A DNA stretch of 45,153 nucleotides from Promethearchaeota archaeon. GTDB taxonomy: Archaea > Asgardarchaeota > Hermodarchaeia > Hermodarchaeales > Hermodarchaeaceae. Position numbers and translations under genes: made by a program. Positions 11,863 through 45,151 of this stretch are shown in pieces. Every line of letters begins with the position of its first letter. Positions within the stretch are counted from its first letter, which is position 1. Below the pieces are notes generated by a model that saw only the letters and a program-made list of their open reading frames with translations, had not been told where the DNA came from and searched no databases. The stretch covers positions 1-45,153 of the forward strand of contig JBHLPR010000013.1 in NCBI GenBank assembly GCA_048939245.1, read 5' to 3'.

Positions 11863-14115
11863 CTATGTATAAGGACCGGGGGTGGTATCAATGGCATCCC
11901 GTTGTGTTGACATGGTGTCAATGTATTCCTTGTAAGCCTTCAGCATTTCTGGGGTGACACTGGGTTTGATTTTCTTTAGAGCAGCTTCGAAATGTTTAGC
12001 GTTGACCGTGGTGAGTTTGTCTTCATGACGTATGGCATACATACCGGCTTCGCGGACAAGATTGGCGAGGTCAGCGCCTGAGTAGCCTTCCGTTGTTTTG
12101 GCAATCTGTTCGAAATCTACATCATCAGCAAGAGGCATGTTTCGTGTGTGAACTTTGAGGATTTCGATCCGGGCATCCTTGTCAGGTGGTGGAACCATAA
12201 TGATTCGGTCAAAGCGTCCTGGTCGAAGGAGTGCTTTGTCGATGATTTCGGGGCGATTAGTAGCTCCGATGACAACGACACCTTTGAGTTCCTCCATTCC
12301 ATCCATTTCAGCGAGGATTTGATTGAGAACAGATTCGTAGACATGGCTGCCTTGCCATTGACCTCTCGCGGGGGCAAGACTATCTAGTTCGTCAAAGAAG
12401 ATAATACTGGGGGCGACTTGACGGGCTTTCCGGAAGATTTTCCGTATACCTTTCTCAGATTCACCTACCCACTTACTGAAAATCTCGGGTCCACGAATGG
12501 CAATGAAGTTAGCTTCACTCTCAGTAGCGACTGCTTTCGCAAGGAGTGTTTTTCCTCCGCCTGGGGGTCCGACAAGGAGAATGCCTTTGGGAGGTTGGAC
12601 GCCAACTTTTTCGAACTTGCCAGGGTATTTGAGCGGCCATTCAACTGCCTCGCGTAATTCGGCTTCTACCTCCTCCAAGCCTCCCACATCGTCCCATGAG
12701 ACTTTGGGGATTTCGAGATAGATTTCGCGTAGAGCGGAGGGTTCTGCTCGACGACGAGATTCTTCAAAGTCTGCTCCTGTGACCTCGAGACTTTCAATAA
12801 TTTCTGCAGGAAGAGGTTGATCTTCTTCCAAATTAATCTTGGGGAGTATGCGACGTAAGGTATTCATCGCGGCTTCCCGTGCAATCGCTGCAAGGTCAGC
12901 ACCAACCATTCCATGGGTTGCATCCGCGAGAGCATCAAGATCCACATCTTTGGACAGAGGCATTCCGCGCGTATGAATTAACAGGACTTCCTTACGTCCA
13001 TTTCGTGTGGGAACTGGAATCTCAATTTCTCGATCAAACCGTCCAGGACGTCGAAGGGCGGGGTCTAGAGCATCTTGCCGATTAGTTGCTGCGATAACAA
13101 TGACTCGACCACGTGCTTGTAGACCATCCATGAGTGCGAGGAGTTGGGCAACAACACGACGTTCCACTTCTCCTTGTACTTCTTCGCGTTTAGGTGCAAT
13201 ACTGTCAATTTCATCGATGAAGATGATGCTTGGAGCCCGTTCAGAGGCTTTTTCAAATAACTCGCGAAGACGCTTTTCCGATTCTCCATAGAATTTACTC
13301 ATAATCTCGGGTCCATTGATGGAAATAAAGGTGGCATCGGATTCATTAGCTACAGCGCGGGCAAGCAGAGTTTTTCCTGTGCCTGGTGGACCAAAGAGGA
13401 GAACCCCTTTGGGTGGATCAATTCCGAGCCTGTCAAAGAGTACGGGGTGTTTCAAAGGGAGTTCGATCATCTCTCGGACACGATCAATAGCCTCATCGAG
13501 CCCACCAATGTCTTCGTAGGTGACGAGTGGAGCTTTTGCTGTAACGTCCACCGCTTCGGGTTGGATCTGGATAACGGTGTCTTCCGTGATCTTTACAACA
13601 CCTTTGGGTGTGGTGCTTGTGACAACAAACTTGATTTCGCCAAGTGCAAAGGGAGCACCTGCGCCTCTCATCATAGCTTCAAATACAGAATAATCACCAC
13701 TTCGAATAGCTCCGGATCCTGCTGTACTGATGATATCACCAGGAGCTACGGGTCGTTGATTTAGACTGGGTTTTACTGCTTCGCCTTCGGCGACTATTCG
13801 AACACCTCGTTGAGCTGGGGCGAGTTCCACTCTTTTGGCTGGGGGTGGGTCGATGCGGTTGACTTCTACAAATTCTCCGATACCTGTACCGCTATTGTTT
13901 CGGACAAGTCCATCCATGAAGATTTTTCCTGAACCTGCATGAATGGATTGGCCACGCCAGACACGTGCACCAGTGGCCTTTTTTCCTTTAATCTCAATGA
14001 TATCGCCAGAGGTTACTCCAAGGCGTTCCATAACCTTGGGGTCTACACGGACAATCCCGCGACCGGCTTCATCGCTAGGCAGTGAGACAACACGCAGTTG
14101 AATTTTATTTGACAT
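11863..14115 (-). CDS. cdc48: Cdc48/VCP (VAT) AAA+ ATPase
   Basis: N-domain, two AAA modules ([14 protein letters not shown] and [20 protein letters not shown]), penultimate Tyr tail (GPYT) of HbYX type. Confidence 0.97.
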
Positions 14116-14538
14116 TTAATCAGTTTCCTCCATTAGGTGAGATAAGCGTTTACGGACTATTTGGAACTCCGAGGCCATCAACTGGAAGAGTGCTTCATAT
14201 GTATCAAAGTAATGGTCGATCATGGCTTGGAGCAATTGATCGCCATCCTTTGTTAGGCGATAGTATCGACGCATGGGTCCACGACCCTCACTGCGGACTT
14301 TGATATCGCCTACAATCCAGCCCTTTTCGGCGAGCCGATTGAGGAGGGGATAGATGGTTCCAGGTTCCAGTTGAATGCGCCCTGCCGACATCTCATCGAT
14401 TAGTGCGCTTATCCGCGCTCCATAAAGGCTTTCTTGTCGTAATAGGGTGAGTACCCAGAACTCAAGAATGCCACGGTTGATTTCACGAGTCCACTCTCGG
14501 AGTTTATCGTGGGTTTTGTCGGTGGAGCCATCAGTCAT
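14116..14538 (-). CDS. PadR family transcriptional regulator
   Basis: RGILEFWVLTLL...YG..I...PGTIYPLLNRL...G..RRYYRLT..G. Likely start ATG 14538. Stop abuts the cdc48 ATG. Confidence 0.88.
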   Translation of the reverse strand: MTDGSTDKTHDKLREWTREINRGILEFWVLTLLRQESLYGARISALIDEMSAGRIQLEPGTIYPLLNRLAEKGWIVGDIKVRSEGRGPMRRYYRLTKDGDQLLQAMIDHYFDTYEALFQLMASEFQIVRKRLSHLMEETD

Positions 14539-14553
14539 TTTGAGTTTCTCCAA

Positions 14554-14577
14554 ATATATAGTATAACTATATATAGT
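14554..14577. promoter_or_regulatory. Palindromic operator candidate for padR-cdc48
   Basis: Perfect ATATATAGT-ATA-ACTATATAT (14554-14574) overlapping a 12-bp palindrome ACTATATATAGT (14566-14577), 16 nt upstream of the padR start. Confidence 0.55.
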
Positions 14578-14761
14578 ATGACAAAGCAGTATTACTACCA
14601 TATATAAACTTATCGAATTTAGAATCCACAAAATTACAGACGGAACCAATTAGTGAAGTAAATATAGACTAAGCCATTCCCTCCGAGGCAGAAAGACTTT
14701 AAAAGACGCATTAGACATTGGCTCAGAACCCAAAGACCAGCAACTTCAAGGTGACTCATTA

Positions 14762-16872: not shown

Positions 16873-17553
16873 ATGGTGTCTCGATTCATGCTAGCCCGAA
16901 TGCATTATCAACGCTTTATTAGCTGGGTATTGGAACTTCGGCATCGTCGAATACAGCATGAGTGGACTGTGGAATGGAATGGGCTTCGTATTCAGATTTG
17001 CCCACAGGTTTTCAATCCATTTACGGGTCGTACAACTCAATTTTTTATTAGACATATGAATATCCGACCTGATAGCCATGTGCTAGAGATTGGGACAGGA
17101 TCTGGGGCGATTGCAGCGGCTGCCGCACAAAACGCTCAGTTTGTTACTGCGACGGATGTAAACCCATACGCTGTCCGGTGTGCACAGGCCACGATGCGAC
17201 AAAATGGGTTGATGAATCGCGTAACGGTTCGATTAGGGGATTTGTTTGTCCCCGTCCATGGAGAGCGCTTTGATATCATCTTGTTTAATCCTCCCTATTT
17301 TCGGTTTGACCCTCAGAGTTGGATGGCAAAAGCATGGTGTGCGGGGTCAAAGCACCAATTGATTGTCCGATTTCTTGAGGGAGCACGAAAGGTGTTGAAA
17401 CCGTCAGGAGAGATTCAGATATTGCTAAGTTCAGCGAGTGATTTGCCTCAGATAATTGGACTTATCAAAATGGCGGAGTTCAGAATCGAACTTATCAGCC
17501 AAGGTCAGATTTTGGGACCGTTGGAAAGAATCTATCTATTCCGGTTGATCTGA
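16873..17553 (+). CDS. HemK2/MTQ2-like SAM-dependent methyltransferase
   Basis: VLEIGTGSG, TDVNP, GDLF, FNPPY. Confidence 0.85.
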   Translation: MVSRFMLARMHYQRFISWVLELRHRRIQHEWTVEWNGLRIQICPQVFNPFTGRTTQFFIRHMNIRPDSHVLEIGTGSGAIAAAAAQNAQFVTATDVNPYAVRCAQATMRQNGLMNRVTVRLGDLFVPVHGERFDIILFNPPYFRFDPQSWMAKAWCAGSKHQLIVRFLEGARKVLKPSGEIQILLSSASDLPQIIGLIKMAEFRIELISQGQILGPLERIYLFRLI

Positions 17554-18576
17554 TTTTCGTCGCATCTTCGCCAATAAAGTGCTCCAGGGTATGAAGAAGA
17601 GACCAATTAGTACAATGCCGATTATAAGATATAGGGTGTCCATGATAGGATCGGAGCCTCCACCAAAGATTTGGAGCAGAATGGCTTGCAGGAATGGAAG
17701 TTGGGCGCCGATGGTGATTATCAAGGCTAATACGACTTTGCCAAAGAAACAGAAAAGGAGGGCTTTCCAAAGCGGATATTTGGTTGCTCCGAGGGCGATG
17801 AGGAGGATATCATCGGGGAGAGGAGTGGCTGCGTAGATGAAGATTAGAAGTCCGCCATAGCCGCGTTCGATTTGCCTGCGGATTTTGAGGATTCGTTGTC
17901 CTGTAGGTGATTCTTCTAAGGATTCGCTTTGAGTGCGTCCAAGGAGCCAGGCAACCGTTTCCCCAATGGCGGCACCGGCTCCTGCTACCACGCCAAGGAG
18001 AAGTGCATCAAGGTACGTGAATCCAGGCTGGAGGGCGATAAGGAGGAGGATGAATAGGTAGGGAATGGGAAAGATGACGGTGAAATTACCAAAGATGCTG
18101 ATAAGGAAGATCCCGATATAGATTCCCATGGGTCCGAAGACAGCTAAAGCCCATGCAATGATGCTGTTCATTATATCGAGGATGGATAAGCCGATAAGCA
18201 CGGGAACAATGAGTAAAACCGCAAAGAAGGTGACAAATACCAAGAAGCGGAGGGTGCGGTTGACATCACTTCTTTGGACTTGGGCTTGCCAGACTTGGCG
18301 GAAGGAGAGGTCCTTTCCCCGATAGACTTTGCCTAGCCCCCAAATGAAAAGGATAACCCCAGGGAGCAGATAACTCAATGCCGCGATTAGGGAGGCTGTT
18401 GTAATGTTGGAAGGAAGAAGGAATATACCCATGGAACTGAGAAAATACGGTATGAGTAGTAATACACCCAGAAGGAGGAAAGCTCCGCTGCCAAGTGTTA
18501 GGAAGAATTTAGCATCCCCTGCCCGTTCTTCAGTTGCATTGATTTCTGGGGATGAAGTGGGGGATGGTTCAGTCAC
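17536..18576 (-). CDS. VTT/DedA (SNARE-associated domain) membrane protein with extra N-terminal TMs
   Basis: GNFTVIFPIPY, GAGAAIGE..AWLLGR, AATPLPDD, GK. Confidence 0.8.
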   Translation of the reverse strand: MTEPSPTSSPEINATEERAGDAKFFLTLGSGAFLLLGVLLLIPYFLSSMGIFLLPSNITTASLIAALSYLLPGVILFIWGLGKVYRGKDLSFRQVWQAQVQRSDVNRTLRFLVFVTFFAVLLIVPVLIGLSILDIMNSIIAWALAVFGPMGIYIGIFLISIFGNFTVIFPIPYLFILLLIALQPGFTYLDALLLGVVAGAGAAIGETVAWLLGRTQSESLEESPTGQRILKIRRQIERGYGGLLIFIYAATPLPDDILLIALGATKYPLWKALLFCFFGKVVLALIITIGAQLPFLQAILLQIFGGGSDPIMDTLYLIIGIVLIGLFFIPWSTLLAKMRRKSDQPE

Positions 18577-20989: not shown

Positions 20990-22270
20990 TTAATCTTTTT
21001 CCTTTCGAACCCGTGGTAGAATCTCTACCCCAAACTTATTTTCAACTGTGTGACTTGTCCCTCCTGGACCCTGATATTCACAGGATATTACCCCTTCGTG
21101 AGTACCGGCTTTTGTCGCAATAAGAAAAAGGGGGAATTGAACATTTTGCTGTGCGGGGAGGCTAATAATCCGTTTTTCGAGAGTTCCGGTTTGTAGGAGG
21201 AGACTCGGCGGCAAGGCTATTTTGATATTGACATCCGCCGCATCGCCATGACTGTCGTTTTCAACACGAAGGATTAGTTCGAATTCTTCTTGGGAATGAG
21301 GAGAGGCGACCGGTTCAGTGATAATAGTAAGTCGGGGTTTAGCAGCGGTGATTTCTAATTGGAATGGATTGGATTTGAATTGAAATTGCTGTTTATCGAT
21401 TTGGAAGACAGCGATGAATGGTCCAACATCAAAAGTACCGGGAAGACGTGGTTCTAACGTGAAGAGAATTTTGAATTTTTTCTTCGATTCACGAGGAATA
21501 TTGAATTCTTGGAGGAGCGCGATATTCGATGGAAGGAAGATTTGGATATCAAGGAATCGGGCGGGAACGGAAAAAGTAACCGCGATATGCCCAATAATTT
21601 GTTCTTTGATTTTGACTTCTTCCTTGTCTAAGGTTAGCTTCAATGTTGCAGATTCTGTAATTTGATAGAGTGTAAGTAGAGTTGAAATCAGTTGGTTGAC
21701 TGTTTCAGATTCATCAAACTTTGTGGGAATTTGAAAATCTTTAGGAACTGAGTCTCCTTCGATGAAGCGGTGCACAAGAAGGGAGGCAACATCATATACA
21801 GCTGTCTTAATTTTTTTCACTCCGACGCGTTTTTCGAGTTTAAATGCCTCGCGATATGTCTGTTTTGATTTCGCCAGATCATTGGCAGCTAAGAGCAGAA
21901 TGGTTTGAAGGGAGTAGGTTCGAATTAATAGCCTGTCATTTTTATTCCTTGTCCCGATACGGGCTACCTGGTCTAAAGCTGACGAGGCAGCAGTAAAATC
22001 CTGGTTGGCAGTTGCGGAATCCACGGCATCAAATAGGATGGCAGTTTCACGTTTATCGTCTTGTACCGCTAGATAGAATTGAGCTGCTTGTAAAAAGGCT
22101 TCATAGGCTCGTCTATAATCTGGAATTTTGTTATAATTGTGTCCAGCTGCAGACCATTCATCGGCAGCTTTACTTTCGTCTCCCTCTGCTTGATATCTGT
22201 GTGCACGTTTCTCATGTTTAGCCGCTGATTTGACCGGATCTCCACCGAAGAGGCCTTTTAGAAAGGACAT
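20990..22270 (-). CDS. Alpha-SNAP-like TPR solenoid fused to two Ig-like domains
   Basis: MSFLKGLFGG...WSAAG...AFLQAAQFYL helical repeats, C-terminal beta sandwiches (LRVEN...A.DV.I...LP...F.L.A.KAGTH). Confidence 0.65.
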   Translation of the reverse strand: MSFLKGLFGGDPVKSAAKHEKRAHRYQAEGDESKAADEWSAAGHNYNKIPDYRRAYEAFLQAAQFYLAVQDDKRETAILFDAVDSATANQDFTAASSALDQVARIGTRNKNDRLLIRTYSLQTILLLAANDLAKSKQTYREAFKLEKRVGVKKIKTAVYDVASLLVHRFIEGDSVPKDFQIPTKFDESETVNQLISTLLTLYQITESATLKLTLDKEEVKIKEQIIGHIAVTFSVPARFLDIQIFLPSNIALLQEFNIPRESKKKFKILFTLEPRLPGTFDVGPFIAVFQIDKQQFQFKSNPFQLEITAAKPRLTIITEPVASPHSQEEFELILRVENDSHGDAADVNIKIALPPSLLLQTGTLEKRIISLPAQQNVQFPLFLIATKAGTHEGVISCEYQGPGGTSHTVENKFGVEILPRVRKEKD

Positions 22271-26348: not shown

Positions 26349-27833
26349 ATGAGGTTTAAACCAAGTGGCGTAAATCCAGCACTCATTACGCCATTTACCA
26401 AAAATGAATCTAAAGTGGATGAACCGGCTTTTCGTAAGCTGATTCGACATTGCATTGATGATCTTGGAGTCACTGGATTGGTCCCTGCGGGTACCACCGG
26501 TGAATTCACCAGTTTGAATATCCAGGAACACAAGCAGGTTATGAAAATTGCCATTGAAGAAGCAGCGGGTAAAGTGCCTGTGATTGCAGGTGCAGGTGCC
26601 AGTAGTACTAAAACAACTTTGGAGCTTGTAGAATATGCCAAAAAAGCCGGTGCAGCTGCATGTCTTGTTGTCACTCCATACTATATGCGTCCGACCCTCC
26701 GAGGTTTATATGAACATTATCGGCGGTTAAATGACATAGGACAGCCAATTATCCTCTATAATATCCCCCAATGCACGGGATTGGATATACCGTGGCAAAT
26801 CGTTGAGGATCTCGCTGATTTAGATAATATCGTTGGTATCAAGGATTCCAGTGGGCAACTTAAACTGATTCTAGCGGTCTTGGAAAAGGTTGGGTCTAAA
26901 ATCAACGTGTTAGTCGGCCACGACGAAGTGGTCTTTCCAGCTTTTGCTTCGGGGTGCTCTGGAGCAATACTGGCTAGCGCACAACTAATCGGCGATATTT
27001 GGCTTGATATGCTCAAAAAAGTCCAAGCCAAGAAATTCGACGAAGCAAGAGCTATGCAATTGAAGGTTCAAAAACTCACGCGACTCATTGTGGGATCAGG
27101 TGCAGCAGGAACAAAAGCAGGGTTAAACATGATGGGAATTTCGGTAGGTAAACCACGTCTTCCACTAACTTATGGCGGCGTGCTTACTTACGAGAATCGT
27201 GAAGAAATTCGCATCGAACTTGAAAAACTGGGCAAAATCAAAGGCAAGGCTGTGACCGTTGAGGTGGAGCCCAAACAACCCCTTGAAGCCCGTTTTGGGG
27301 TCTTTGGGTTTACACCGGAGCATGTGAAAGACTTCTCGCTTAAAGTTGGAGAAGGACTCGCAGGTGGCGGCGCTGAAGTTGCGCATATTGACTTGATGAT
27401 TGGACGTAAGGATGGCCCTGTTGGTTTCGCTTTTGCACAAGCAAAGGCTGCACCGAAGGAACGGATGGAGCCACTTCTTGCGATTCTAGAGCCCAATTTG
27501 ATGGTGAAGCCTGAAACGCTTCTAGTTCCTACAGTTGCTAATCGGAGTATGCATCAGGCTAGCCTGTTCGGAGGACCCGCTCAAACAGGTTGCGCGAAAG
27601 CTGTTGTAGATTCAGTTGAAGAAGGCATTATTCCTAAAGCCGTAGCTGACAAATTAGTTATTGTAGCAACGGTATTTGTCCATCCCACGGCAGTGGATCG
27701 TAAACGGCTCCTCATCAACAATTACAAAGCAATGCGACATGCAATCCGTCGAGCAATCGAGGGACGACCGAGTATCAAAGAACTACTTGCTGATAAAGAA
27801 TTTGCGAAACATCCATTCCGCTGGGGTCCTTAA
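26349..27833 (+). CDS. DapA/NAL-family class I aldolase fused to formaldehyde-activating enzyme (Fae)
   Basis: N-terminal: ALITPF, GTTGE, TPYY, YNIP, GIKDSSG. C-terminal: VGEGL.G.GAEVAHIDLMIG, PNLMVKP, GPAQ...AKAV.DSV.EGIIP, VFVHP, NY.A...AI.RA, HPF. Confidence 0.9.
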   Translation: MRFKPSGVNPALITPFTKNESKVDEPAFRKLIRHCIDDLGVTGLVPAGTTGEFTSLNIQEHKQVMKIAIEEAAGKVPVIAGAGASSTKTTLELVEYAKKAGAAACLVVTPYYMRPTLRGLYEHYRRLNDIGQPIILYNIPQCTGLDIPWQIVEDLADLDNIVGIKDSSGQLKLILAVLEKVGSKINVLVGHDEVVFPAFASGCSGAILASAQLIGDIWLDMLKKVQAKKFDEARAMQLKVQKLTRLIVGSGAAGTKAGLNMMGISVGKPRLPLTYGGVLTYENREEIRIELEKLGKIKGKAVTVEVEPKQPLEARFGVFGFTPEHVKDFSLKVGEGLAGGGAEVAHIDLMIGRKDGPVGFAFAQAKAAPKERMEPLLAILEPNLMVKPETLLVPTVANRSMHQASLFGGPAQTGCAKAVVDSVEEGIIPKAVADKLVIVATVFVHPTAVDRKRLLINNYKAMRHAIRRAIEGRPSIKELLADKEFAKHPFRWGP

Positions 27834-41782: not shown

Positions 41783-44700
41783 TTACTTGTCATCCGAATC
41801 GTCGATAATAAATTCCTTCTTATCCTTGACGATCTTCCCTTTGGGTATATCCTTAGAACGCTTTTCGCGGAAAGTCTGTAGTACTTTTTGGCGTTCTTCG
41901 TCACTCAAATCTTTGAGTTCTTCCAGAAGTTTTTGGCGTTCTTTTTCAGTAAGCGAAGGAAACTCCGCAGGCCCCAGCACTTCTTCAACTGTTTCCGCTT
42001 GGGGTTTATCCGCTATTGCTAGCGTCTGAAAGATTTCTTCCCAATCCTCTTTGGGAATCTTCCGTAATTGTGCGGCAATTCGTTCCTTCTCAAGTTTACC
42101 AAGTGTTGGATAGGTCGCTAACCGTGCCTGAAGTTCCGTTTCCAGATCCTCACTAATTTCTGGCTCTTTGACTTTTCTATCAAATCGTGTTCCATCGGCC
42201 ATTTGTCTTCTAAGGTCTTCGATGAACCACACACGTTCAGCTGGTGCGATTTGTTTCATCTGCTGGAATAAGTCTAATTTCTGCTCGTATTCGATAAAGG
42301 GAAGACTTTTCAATTTCGACCAAATCGCATCATCTTCAGCTTCTCGTTCGGCCCAATTAATTTCTGCAGGAATCACTGTTGGAGCAGCCGCAAGCCCCAC
42401 TGAACTATAATAAGACGCGGCAATTTCAGAAATTAACCCGGTTCTATCGGAAATTCGAGCACGTTCCATTTTAGAAAGACTGGGCGAGCCTCCCTTTCCA
42501 ATACTCTTAGCCATCTTTCGCATTTTACGAACCATCCACGGAATAGAGAAGACCCGCACATACGCAACCCAAAGAATAAGACCCAATATCGCAATGACTG
42601 CACCAATGGATACATACACCATAATACTACGCGTGAAGTCTGTGGCTCTAACATAGATGTAAATTGTGCGACTGCTGGGAGTTTTATATGGGAATGGAGC
42701 GGAAGCAGTGATCTGAATGGTGTGTGTTGTTTCTAGCAAACCACTATACCACTCAAACGTATAGGTTCCGTTATGATGATTAATCATTGGTTCCTCAATT
42801 CCCAAGGCCACAATAGTGATTGTCAAATCAGCATTAGAAATCAGCAGTGAATTATGGGTATCATTGAGCATAACACTAATTGTGAAATTAGTGCCGACTA
42901 GGACTTGAATTGGTTCTTGAAGAGGTACAATTTCGGTTGGAATTTCCTCGAGAGTGAGCCTGAATTCCCTTACATCTTGACCCATCGTTGGTTTGGAAGC
43001 ACTCACATAGATTTGATAATAAAATTCCACGAGAGCCGTCGTGTTAAGGATTCTAGTGTAGATACCAGAACCTGCATCAAAAAGATAACCAGCATCAATT
43101 TCTGTTCCATTTAGAAGTCTAAAATTGTAAGAGACATTAGCTCCATTAATAGGTACATTGTCGCGATCTGTAACAAAAGATACCGTGAGATTAAATGAAT
43201 CTCCAAAGAAGACGGAAAATTCTATTGGAGAAAGAATCTCCAATCGGGTTGCGGTAGGATTAATGGTAATTATAATTATTTTTGTTATTGAGAAATATTT
43301 TGTGGTGTTTGATGCCCGAAGAGTAACCTGATAATCAGGGCCCACACTAGCATTAGCATAGAATTCCACATAATAGTGACCGCTCCCTTGCCAATTCATG
43401 GCAACAAAGCCACGACCAGCCCAACTATATTCTACAATCGCATCATTAATGGGAACGCCCGCCAAATTTGTGACAAGTAATGAAATATTCACAAGTTCAT
43501 TATATTCAACTTCCCATCGTCCAGTGGCAGGCTCGATAATTTGCATATTCAATTGGATGCGGGTTATCTCAACTGTTATGAATATCGTCTTTGAGTCATA
43601 ATGAGGATATGCGAACTCAACTTGGATTGTGTGTGTCCCCACCGAACTAATTGAAGTGTTTAATTGTAGAAAATAGGTACCATTGCCAAAATCAGAAATT
43701 GAATAGTAACCGAAAAGCCAATCGATGGTGACAGTTGCATTTTTAATGGAAACCCCGAGATGATCGAGGTCACTATATGTGAACAAGCAAGTTGCGTTGG
43801 TTCCAATTTCCACAATTTGTGCTGGAGTATTAGCTTCAAGTCCTGTTCGGATTTGCCGTATAACAAAGCTTTGGAGATTATAATCTGTCATATAGTGTTC
43901 GTTAGTTGCAGTGATTTGGACAAGAAATCCTCCTTCGACTTCATTCTCTGTATATATAGTTAGGTTATAGTAACCAGAAGCAGCATCATAGATGGAGTCC
44001 CAGTAGAATATCTCCCAGTCGCACCAAATGCTCGCTCCGGATATTATCACATTGTGATCATCGTCATTGAATTTCAAGATGAGGGTGAGGCTTTCCCCCC
44101 ACGGAACAGACGTTGATGTTGATCCCATAACAATGGTATCGAGAATTGAAAGAGATGTTTGGATATCTCGAACTTGAAATACCACGTTTACCTGGTTAAT
44201 GTCATAATGCGTTTTATTGAATGTGAAAGTTAACGTATAACCTTGCGTTCCTTGAGGTACTAAAGTTGTGTTAAGAGTAATCGTATAGGTGCCATTGTCA
44301 TAATCCATTTCCCAATAATCCTGACCTTCATGACCATCCATCCATGAGAAGCCAATGGTTGCTCCAGGAATTCCATAGCTTGAATGATCAGTGTCATAAT
44401 ATTTCAAAATGATAGTGACATTGTCACCCCAGGCTACAGAGGGAGATTCAGCGTTACCAGAACTCGTTGTGTGGGCAGGACGAACTGTAACCTCATAAAG
44501 TTTGGTTTGCGTTTGATAATTTGTCTTATTGAATCTAATAATAACGGTGTAAAAGCCTTCAGAAATCGTTCCATTTAATGTAATAGTGTAAACTCCAGGA
44601 GTGAGTGGATTATATTCCCAATTTTCTGCGAAACCTGAAACAGTGATTCCAGCATTGCTTATACCAACCTCTTGTGACCCGCTTATATCGTTGAATGTAA

Positions 44701-45151
44701 AAGTGATAATCGCATTATCGTTATAGACAAGTTCGAGAGCGGTGGGCGTATAATCAGCGACAAGTTGGGTTTTTCGAGCCTCGATGATGAGGTTTATGCG
44801 AATAGTTTGGAGTGCATGATCTGTATAGGTTGCATTAACGAAAAGGGCATGGGTTCCGACAGGCAAAGAAGCCGTATTTAATGAATAATTGTAATACCCA
44901 TCTGTCTTCTCATCCAAGGAATAAACAGTTCCACCAATGAGGATTTTTACAGTTGCAGATTCAATCCCCGTTAGCGTATCAATATTTTCGTAGTATACTG
45001 TGATGTTAAACCAATTATCCCAATAGATATGAACCTCGTAAGAATCTGTTAGGTTATTGTACTCAGTCCACCCATTCCCAGTTCCGGTGGGTGGGTAATC
45101 AATATCGGTGCGAACGGCGTCTAGATTTGTCGCCCATGAGACGACGCTAAT
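41783..45151 (-). CDS. Very large Ig-repeat single-pass membrane protein with helical-repeat cytoplasmic tail (5' end beyond window)
   Basis: Frame stays open past 44917 to the window edge. Repeated ~95-aa units (W/YG.N.T...Y.D.D....I.GA...NGTY...LNT...G.Y), TM, ~250-aa cytoplasmic domain. Confidence 0.88.
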   Translation of the reverse strand: MSVVSWATNLDAVRTDIDYPPTGTGNGWTEYNNLTDSYEVHIYWDNWFNITVYYENIDTLTGIESATVKILIGGTVYSLDEKTDGYYNYSLNTASLPVGTHALFVNATYTDHALQTIRINLIIEARKTQLVADYTPTALELVYNDNAIITFTFNDISGSQEVGISNAGITVSGFAENWEYNPLTPGVYTITLNGTISEGFYTVIIRFNKTNYQTQTKLYEVTVRPAHTTSSGNAESPSVAWGDNVTIILKYYDTDHSSYGIPGATIGFSWMDGHEGQDYWEMDYDNGTYTITLNTTLVPQGTQGYTLTFTFNKTHYDINQVNVVFQVRDIQTSLSILDTIVMGSTSTSVPWGESLTLILKFNDDDHNVIISGASIWCDWEIFYWDSIYDAASGYYNLTIYTENEVEGGFLVQITATNEHYMTDYNLQSFVIRQIRTGLEANTPAQIVEIGTNATCLFTYSDLDHLGVSIKNATVTIDWLFGYYSISDFGNGTYFLQLNTSISSVGTHTIQVEFAYPHYDSKTIFITVEITRIQLNMQIIEPATGRWEVEYNELVNISLLVTNLAGVPINDAIVEYSWAGRGFVAMNWQGSGHYYVEFYANASVGPDYQVTLRASNTTKYFSITKIIIITINPTATRLEILSPIEFSVFFGDSFNLTVSFVTDRDNVPINGANVSYNFRLLNGTEIDAGYLFDAGSGIYTRILNTTALVEFYYQIYVSASKPTMGQDVREFRLTLEEIPTEIVPLQEPIQVLVGTNFTISVMLNDTHNSLLISNADLTITIVALGIEEPMINHHNGTYTFEWYSGLLETTHTIQITASAPFPYKTPSSRTIYIYVRATDFTRSIMVYVSIGAVIAILGLILWVAYVRVFSIPWMVRKMRKMAKSIGKGGSPSLSKMERARISDRTGLISEIAASYYSSVGLAAAPTVIPAEINWAEREAEDDAIWSKLKSLPFIEYEQKLDLFQQMKQIAPAERVWFIEDLRRQMADGTRFDRKVKEPEISEDLETELQARLATYPTLGKLEKERIAAQLRKIPKEDWEEIFQTLAIADKPQAETVEEVLGPAEFPSLTEKERQKLLEELKDLSDEERQKVLQTFREKRSKDIPKGKIVKDKKEFIIDDSDDK

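Follow-up and report, generated by a model that had tools for sequence, protein, structure and literature searches.

The 45,153-nucleotide window analyzed here (positions 1–45,153 of contig JBHLPR010000013.1, assembly GCA_048939245.1, from a Promethearchaeota archaeon of the Hermodarchaeia) encodes on its reverse strand a 426-amino acid protein that belongs to a widespread Asgard family. This protein consists of an apolar N-terminal peptide, a nine-helix alpha-solenoid of the tetratricopeptide repeat (TPR) type, and two immunoglobulin (Ig)-like domains of the CARDB/DUF11 type, followed in this clade by a basic tail (Table 1). Eukaryotic SNAPs are the nearest known relatives of the solenoid, and the Ig-like half is of a generic, bacterial type. 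We favor, with about even confidence, the reading that the protein is a soluble cytoplasmic scaffold, and this scaffold is probably membrane-associated. An initial annotation of the window, made from the sequence alone, had described the gene product as a SNAP/Sec17-like solenoid with a membrane loop, fused to Ig-like domains and possibly acting as an adaptor for an AAA ATPase.

The open reading frame (ORF) is far from a chance one because it has 51 homologues (42–93% identity), nearly all of which are 422–426 amino acids long. The three sequence strings on which the initial annotation relied are all present in it (MSFLKGLFGG at residues 1–10, EWSAAGHNY at 38–46, and AFLQAAQFYL at 58–67). In the AlphaFold2 model, built from a 32-sequence orthologue alignment (mean predicted local distance difference test [pLDDT] 91.1; predicted template-modeling score [pTM] 0.74), residues 1–8 are disordered, residues 12–149 form seven regular 17-residue helices with a strict 20-residue pitch, two further helices follow at 157–170 and 189–205, and beta-sandwiches occupy residues 209–308 and 314–418. 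The model and the hydropathy profile thus bear out the annotated order of a helical part and two beta-sandwiches with no membrane-spanning segment. No transmembrane segment is apparent (the top Kyte-Doolittle 19-residue mean, 1.33, lies in the beta-strand region), and, as judged without a dedicated signal-peptide predictor, no export signal is evident, with only four or five apolar N-terminal residues before a charged helix. An NCBIfam scan of the 426-amino acid protein returned nothing useful, and a single-sequence search of solved structures returned only noise, a RecA artefact.

Profile comparisons place the solenoid nearest to SNAPs. The Pfam SNAP model (PF14938) matches the studied protein at 31.2 bits (cut-off 25) and is the commonest match among 30 diverse family members (17 of 30, vs. 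seven each for TPR_2 and TPR_12). When own-clade sequences were used as a profile against PDB sequences, Sec17 (E = 6.8e-6) and alpha-SNAP (E ~2e-4) came first, followed by Cut9 (E = 0.04). The broad-family profile gave E-values of 4.6e-12 to 1.8e-10 for alpha-SNAP, Sec17, and gamma-SNAP, with the next natural protein at 9e-7; only designed consensus TPRs outscored the SNAPs. A search of 5.8 billion proteins with the own-clade profile brought up a true eukaryotic SNAP (E = 4e-6). In hhalign comparisons with a 30-sequence SNAP alignment, the own clade reached 95% (E = 4e-8) and the broad family 97.5–98.2% (E = 6.5e-12 to 2.3e-13), with reversed-profile controls at 46% or less.

The predicted structure gave the same ranking. 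In an exhaustive comparison against 48,161 chains, gamma-SNAP (Z = 17.2–17.8) and Sec17 (Z = 16.2–16.5) ranked highest whether the query was the complete model or the helical domain by itself, and the isolated solenoid superposed on gamma-SNAP with Z = 17.2 and a root-mean-square deviation (rmsd) of 2.9 Å over 185 residues. Foldseek template-modeling (TM) scores were 0.68–0.74 for SNAPs, 0.67 for HAP40, and 0.57 or less for Rap, LGN, and KLC; in the ESM Atlas, a gamma-SNAP cluster was the best by TM (0.72 vs. 0.62 or less). HAP40, which is thus also among the top structural matches of the solenoid, is a published SNAP derivative (PMC7725122). The absence of a SNAP preference, named beforehand as an outcome that would count against the initial annotation, was not what we found for the helical half, for which SNAPs rank first in both profiles and structure. 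The SNAP-like solenoid therefore stands, with a preference over other TPRs in four independent measures (Pfam, profiles, hhalign, and structure), whereas the motif alignment claimed for it proved inconsistent.

The three annotated pairs of SNAP motifs, taken as one alignment, need offsets of 24, 19, and 6, and therefore cannot all be homologous positions. Two SNAP registers nearly tie. The best one, in both sequence and three-dimensional (3D) comparisons, places family residues 9–194 on SNAP residues ~86–270, that is, from SNAP helix 5 onward, and the best alignments span SNAP residues about 86–275 or 88–270. The second, spanning SNAP 30–185, puts family residue 11 on the SNAP residue just past the apolar loop; it reached 95.7% with the broad family and is a near tie over residues 1–90. 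The initially annotated register agrees with this second-best profile alignment, and in 3D it is the poorest of three superpositions (alpha-SNAP Z = 12.4–13.5, rmsd 6–8 Å). Mutual similarity among the four solenoid hairpins was not detectable in an internal-repeat comparison, so recent amplification is not the cause of the multiple registers.

Similar to SNAPs (alpha-SNAP, gamma-SNAP, and Sec17), the protein has a twisted TPR-like solenoid with helices of ~17–20 residues, and a short apolar peptide at the N-terminal end of the solenoid. Unlike SNAPs, in which a twisted sheet of nine helices is joined to a C-terminal helical bundle to make 14 helices, it contains only nine helices in total. The best register leaves SNAP helices 1–4 without a counterpart (SNAP ~88–270 only), and the second one leaves out SNAP helix 1 and the C-terminal bundle. 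Where SNAPs have the acidic C-terminal segment that binds and activates NSF/Sec18, the studied protein continues into its Ig-like pair and ends in a basic ...RKEKD sequence. The SNARE domain (PF05739) has no match in the host genome, which is 88% complete; with part of the genome missing, this does not prove that SNAREs are lacking. Exclusive common descent of the solenoid with SNAP is plausible but unproven.

A second SNAP-like protein is encoded on another contig of the same genome (C9:74200–74772, + strand; L009:1450–2022). This stand-alone 190-amino acid TPR protein is a better match to the SNAP N-terminal part than the studied protein is (Pfam SNAP E = 2.5e-10 over profile positions 3–173; hhalign 93.5% vs. 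SNAP 4–148) and has an 'AFLEF' stretch at the position of the SNAP apolar loop. The two proteins together would span most of a SNAP.

TRAPP and adaptin domains, to which the initial annotation had likened the Ig-like half, are not its preferred matches; the generic CARDB/DUF11/TRAP-beta resemblance that we found is the result named beforehand as speaking against that likeness. The best match of the second sandwich is the TRAP-beta luminal domain (Z = 14.2–14.8, rmsd 1.8–2.7 Å), and both sandwiches superpose on tandem DUF11/CARDB proteins (TM 0.67–0.75). The pair also matches transglutaminase C-terminal barrels and alpha-2-macroglobulin MG pairs, and the first sandwich has a weak Pfam BatD match (E = 1.5e-3). 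The Pfam matches of this half in the 30 diverse members are divided among TRAP_beta, BatD, TRAPPC13_C, CARDB, DUF11, and Transglut_C, none of which stands out. Among the large-TRAPP families compared (Foie-gras, Gryzun, TRAPPC9-Trs120, TRAPPC10, Ig_TPPC8, and TRAPPC13), TRAPPC13_C was the sole match (E = 0.049 in the studied protein; five of the 30 members, best E = 4.8e-5), and TRAP_beta, BatD, and CARDB scored equally well or better. A profile of the C-terminal half (A5) found no solved structure below E = 0.36, and thus no sequence match to TRAPP, adaptin, or TRAP-beta. In the second sandwich, N338 and G362 are invariant and G342, A344, and K366 nearly so, a pattern that we take to be typical of CARDB/DUF11 domains. 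CARDB, DUF11, and TRAP-beta (E-set) domains, sandwiches of seven to eight strands, occur in surface proteins of archaea and bacteria and in the beta subunit of the eukaryotic translocon-associated protein, and such proteins are mostly exported or luminal; unlike them, the studied protein has no transmembrane segment or evident export signal, and is fused to a cytosolic-type TPR solenoid.

Conservation peaks in the N-terminal peptide, helices 1–3, the second Ig-like domain, and the tail, and the first Ig-like domain is the least conserved domain. The first helix, with its block K14, S15, A16, A17, K18, H19, E20, R22, and A23, is together with the N-terminal peptide among the most conserved parts, and its basic residues K14, K18, H19, and R22 are nearly invariant. 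Within the clade, the N-terminus follows the pattern M-S-F-L-[KR]-(x-h-h-x)-G-[DN]-P, in which h is apolar and the bracketed four residues are absent from several orthologues. M1, F3, and G10 are conserved at 90% or more, and MSFL is retained even in orthologues without the next four residues. The LFGG motif emphasized in the initial annotation is not conserved, being present in only four of ~50 orthologues (three with 'LFGG', one with 'LFGA'); the conserved parts are MSFL and G[DN]P. Relatives from Odin, Hod, and Ranarchaeia also have MSFL-type N-termini. The mean Eisenberg hydrophobicity of the N-terminal peptide is 0.49. The peptide falls on the SNAP helix 1–2 loop in the second-best register alone; the best register, by sequence or in 3D, does not bring the two together. 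In the tail, K423 and K425 are conserved at 90% or more in the own-clade alignment (A1), and the tail is absent from distant members.

The family is Asgard-wide and, among named matches, Asgard-restricted. The nearest homologues are from metagenome-assembled genomes labeled Thor-, Hermod-, Hod-, or Promethearchaeota, within a wider family of 410–450-amino acid proteins with the same architecture. When 1.84 billion representatives were scanned exhaustively with phmmer, only 46 proteins matched, about half of them of 410–450 amino acids with this architecture, and the named matches, from Hod-, Hel-, Odin-, and Thorarchaeota and Ranarchaeia, were all Asgard. Using a profile of 30 diverse members (E = 1e-10 or better), we detected the family in 229 of 301 sampled Asgard-phylum genomes, including 72 of 90 high-quality genomes, and in 51 of 70 genera; a genome that has the family carries one to four copies of it. 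A few family-level groups in this 301-genome sample had no profile match at all, and one group (f4) reached only ~1e-11 at best, which may be a domain-level match. The host genome (2.52 Mb, 88% complete) has a single full-length family copy and no full-length paralogues. On its contig C53 (L021:361–2661), a gene for a 440-amino acid membrane protein comes after one for a MoxR-type AAA ATPase, and the sandwich of this membrane protein weakly matches the family profile (E = 2e-3). This locus, which we take to resemble a MoxR-DUF58 (Bat-like) pair, was rejected as a source of a paralogue: its product is a DUF58-like protein beside MoxR and has only a sandwich in common with the family.

The studied gene lies in a co-directional run, with genes for RsmB, a PUA protein, and an MBL-fold hydrolase on one side and genes for a sugar-nucleotidyltransferase and AsnC on the other; a VTT/DedA protein and a PadR-Cdc48 pair are encoded further on. 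Cdc48 (CDC48_N, CDC48_2, and two AAA domains; 11863–14115, − strand) is indeed about 7 kb away (6.9 kb), as initially noted, and at least eight unrelated genes on both strands lie between the two. Gene order across the entire block is kept in orthologues with as little as 43% identity and is lost in Odin and Hod relatives, which together with 20 further loci have unrelated housekeeping neighbors. Therefore, the nearness of Cdc48 is the inherited gene order of one clade and no sign of the functional AAA ATPase link that had been suggested. Co-folding of the Cdc48 N-domain (A4) with the whole protein (A1) scored 0.00, which speaks neither for nor against binding. Neighbors recurring within lineage groups include AlaX-like, nucleoside phosphorylase, ferredoxin-type, HMG-CoA reductase, and tRNA synthetase genes.

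Several features of these loci are recorded here as observations in their own right. The Cdc48 gene (750 amino acids) directly follows a PadR-family regulator gene (both within 11863–14649, − strand), the stop of one ORF abutting the start of the other, and the pair is adjacent and co-directional in all syntenic loci. The VTT-domain membrane protein (DedA/TMEM41/VMP1-type; 17536–18576, − strand), encoded 2.4 kb from the studied gene, is kept in the syntenic block of all close orthologues. In one Asgard lineage group of eight loci (L046, L048–L052, L055, and L056), the immediate neighbor of the family gene, on the opposite strand, encodes a stand-alone protein of ~245 amino acids (e.g., L056:9260–9994, − strand) that is also above the Pfam SNAP cut-off (E = 3e-6), and an AlaX-like tRNA_SAD protein is encoded on the other side of the family gene.

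Under the favored scaffold reading, the apolar N-terminal peptide and the basic first helix (K14, K18, H19, and R22) would tether the protein to the cytoplasmic side of the membrane, a helical partner would be gripped by the SNAP-like solenoid, and the conserved second Ig-like domain could provide a docking platform for another protein. Several observations weigh against this reading, in which both the membrane binding and the ligand are putative. Pfam SNAP also matches in four of 14 model prokaryote genomes used as controls and at three other loci of the host genome, and two long TPR proteins from that genome, compared as single sequences, reached 77–92% against the SNAP profile, where the N-terminal domain of the studied protein alone reached 53%; in this like-for-like hhalign comparison, TPR proteins of the same genome thus equal or beat it. 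The sequence signal is confined to residues 1–130, and residues 130–208 alone showed no similarity to the SNAP C-terminal bundle. About half of the distant subfamilies are without the apolar peptide and start with charged residues. An amphipathic-helix interpretation of the N-terminus was rejected, the peptide being apolar with an ordinary helical moment (63rd percentile). When 26 loci were clustered, no neighbor was common across lineage groups, and the flanking housekeeping genes give no functional clue. Finally, bacterial TPR-plus-DUF11 proteins of the same size exist.

Much of this fits a rival possibility, to which we give a smaller share of our confidence, that the protein is an ordinary TPR-CARDB protein, a regulator or assembly factor that works in the cytosol and takes no part in membrane or trafficking processes, whose SNAP-likeness reflects the long-helix TPR_12 class (Rap, LGN, KLC, and SNAP) and not specific descent. 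The promiscuity of Pfam SNAP, a signal restricted to repeats and ambiguous in register, a C-terminal half of generic CARDB/DUF11 type, a bacterial BamD/YfiO-plus-DUF11 cluster of the same length, and the housekeeping genomic context all agree with it. However, from the family side SNAPs exceed every other natural TPR of solved structure by four to five orders of magnitude, and they also fit best in three dimensions over the solenoid as a whole, its two final non-repeat helices included (2.9 Å over 185 residues; TM 0.68–0.74 vs. 0.62 or less). This possibility would also leave the conserved apolar N-terminus, and the basic helix after it, to be explained.

Two eukaryotic trafficking systems invite comparison, and we regard a direct equivalence with the large TRAPP subunits as unlikely and one with SNAP as more unlikely still. 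TRAPPC8, TRAPPC9, TRAPPC10, and TRAPPC11 are alpha-solenoids followed by ASH/Ig-like sandwiches (PMC4094338), an order that the AlphaFold2 model of this cytosolic protein reproduces, and it could be a small archaeal counterpart of these subunits, of TRAPPC13, or of adaptor appendages, serving as an arm of a GTPase-regulating or coat-like complex. The best whole-model Foldseek match is a yeast TRAPPII chain (7u06_A, E = 1.8e-9, 461 columns), a protein-language-model search listed TRAPPC11 and TRAPPC8-type eukaryotic clusters (0.80 and 0.79), two of the 30 members match Alpha_adaptinC2 in addition to the five with TRAPPC13_C, and a BBS9 domain (6vbu_9, residues 410–534) superposes on the second sandwich (Z = 12.0). 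However, the TM score of 7u06_A is only 0.28 and TRAPPII falls outside the top 50 after Z re-scoring of the Foldseek top 1000; Atlas scores below 0.9 are leads only; the C-terminal profile finds no solved structure (best E = 0.36); and the Ig-like half is more closely matched by tandem DUF11/CARDB proteins of bacteria. The solenoid prefers SNAP, with a TRAPPIII entry (7b6e_A) at only E = 0.16. The studied protein is also two to three times smaller than the large TRAPP subunits, without a significant sequence link to them. The TRAPP core family Bet3 (PF04051) has no match in the 88%-complete host genome, and the control genomes are also all without one.

The other equivalence would make the protein a working SNAP, an adaptor that recruits Cdc48 or another NSF-type AAA ATPase to a membrane-bound helical-bundle substrate. 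The SNAP-like solenoid, the second-best profile register that puts the terminal peptide exactly at the SNAP loop position, and the proximity of Cdc48 in a block syntenic down to 43% identity are in its favor, and the peptide recalls the apolar loop of Sec17/alpha-SNAP described in PMC8143792. The same source assigns NSF binding to the SNAP C-terminus, which is here replaced by Ig-like domains and a basic tail, and the linkage to Cdc48 does not extend beyond the clade. Because the protein has five fewer helices than SNAP, is without the acidic NSF-activating C-terminus, and has no SNARE match in its genome, we do not regard it as a working SNAP. A related evolutionary scenario, that the family is an Asgard remnant of the line from which eukaryotic SNAPs descend, already acting at membranes and holding helical-bundle complexes for a Cdc48-type AAA ATPase, is in our view improbable; under it, the stand-alone 190-amino acid protein of the same genome, similar to the SNAP N-terminal half, may be of the same line. 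If true, the origin of the SNAP/NSF disassembly module would predate eukaryogenesis. The scaffold reading remains the one that we prefer.

SNAPs are universal in eukaryotes. To our knowledge they have no prokaryotic antecedent, and none was found in the literature searched. Reports of SNARE-like proteins are confined to Heimdallarchaeota (Neveu et al. 2020, cited through a preprint). The family is not mentioned in the accessible main text of the recent structure-based Asgard surveys searched, and no description of a solenoid with two CARDB-type domains was found in the literature searched; the combination of a SNAP-like solenoid with CARDB-type domains is best read as a new architecture. Given its presence in about three quarters of sampled Asgard genomes and a solenoid closest to SNAP, the family is a candidate eukaryotic-signature protein and a concrete target for asking whether Asgard cells have SNAP-type membrane adaptors, with the caution that TPR-class similarity is promiscuous.

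Table 1 Features of the studied gene and its product (columns: feature; position in the window; strand; basis or remark)
Whole coding sequence P0001, 426 amino acids plus stop codon	20990..22270	−	ORF list, translation, full-length orthologues of 42–93% identity
N-terminal apolar peptide MSFLKGLFGG, residues 1–10	22241..22270	−	Low pLDDT (flexible); conservation
SNAP-like TPR-type alpha-solenoid, nine helices, residues 11–205	21656..22240	−	Pfam SNAP, 3D matches, hhalign
First Ig-like beta-sandwich, residues 206–310	21341..21655	−	AlphaFold2 strands 209–308; weak Pfam BatD match
Second Ig-like beta-sandwich, CARDB/TRAP-beta type, residues 311–420	21011..21340	−	TRAP-beta match; strong conservation
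Basic C-terminal tail VRKEKD, residues 421–426	20993..21010	−	Conserved in own clade only

Elsewhere in the window, a 494-amino acid ORF (26349–27833, + strand) joins a DHDPS-family domain to a formaldehyde-activating enzyme (Fae) domain, a fusion that the syntenic loci share. At the far end, an ORF of at least 1044–1122 amino acids (41783–45151, − strand) runs past the end of the window.

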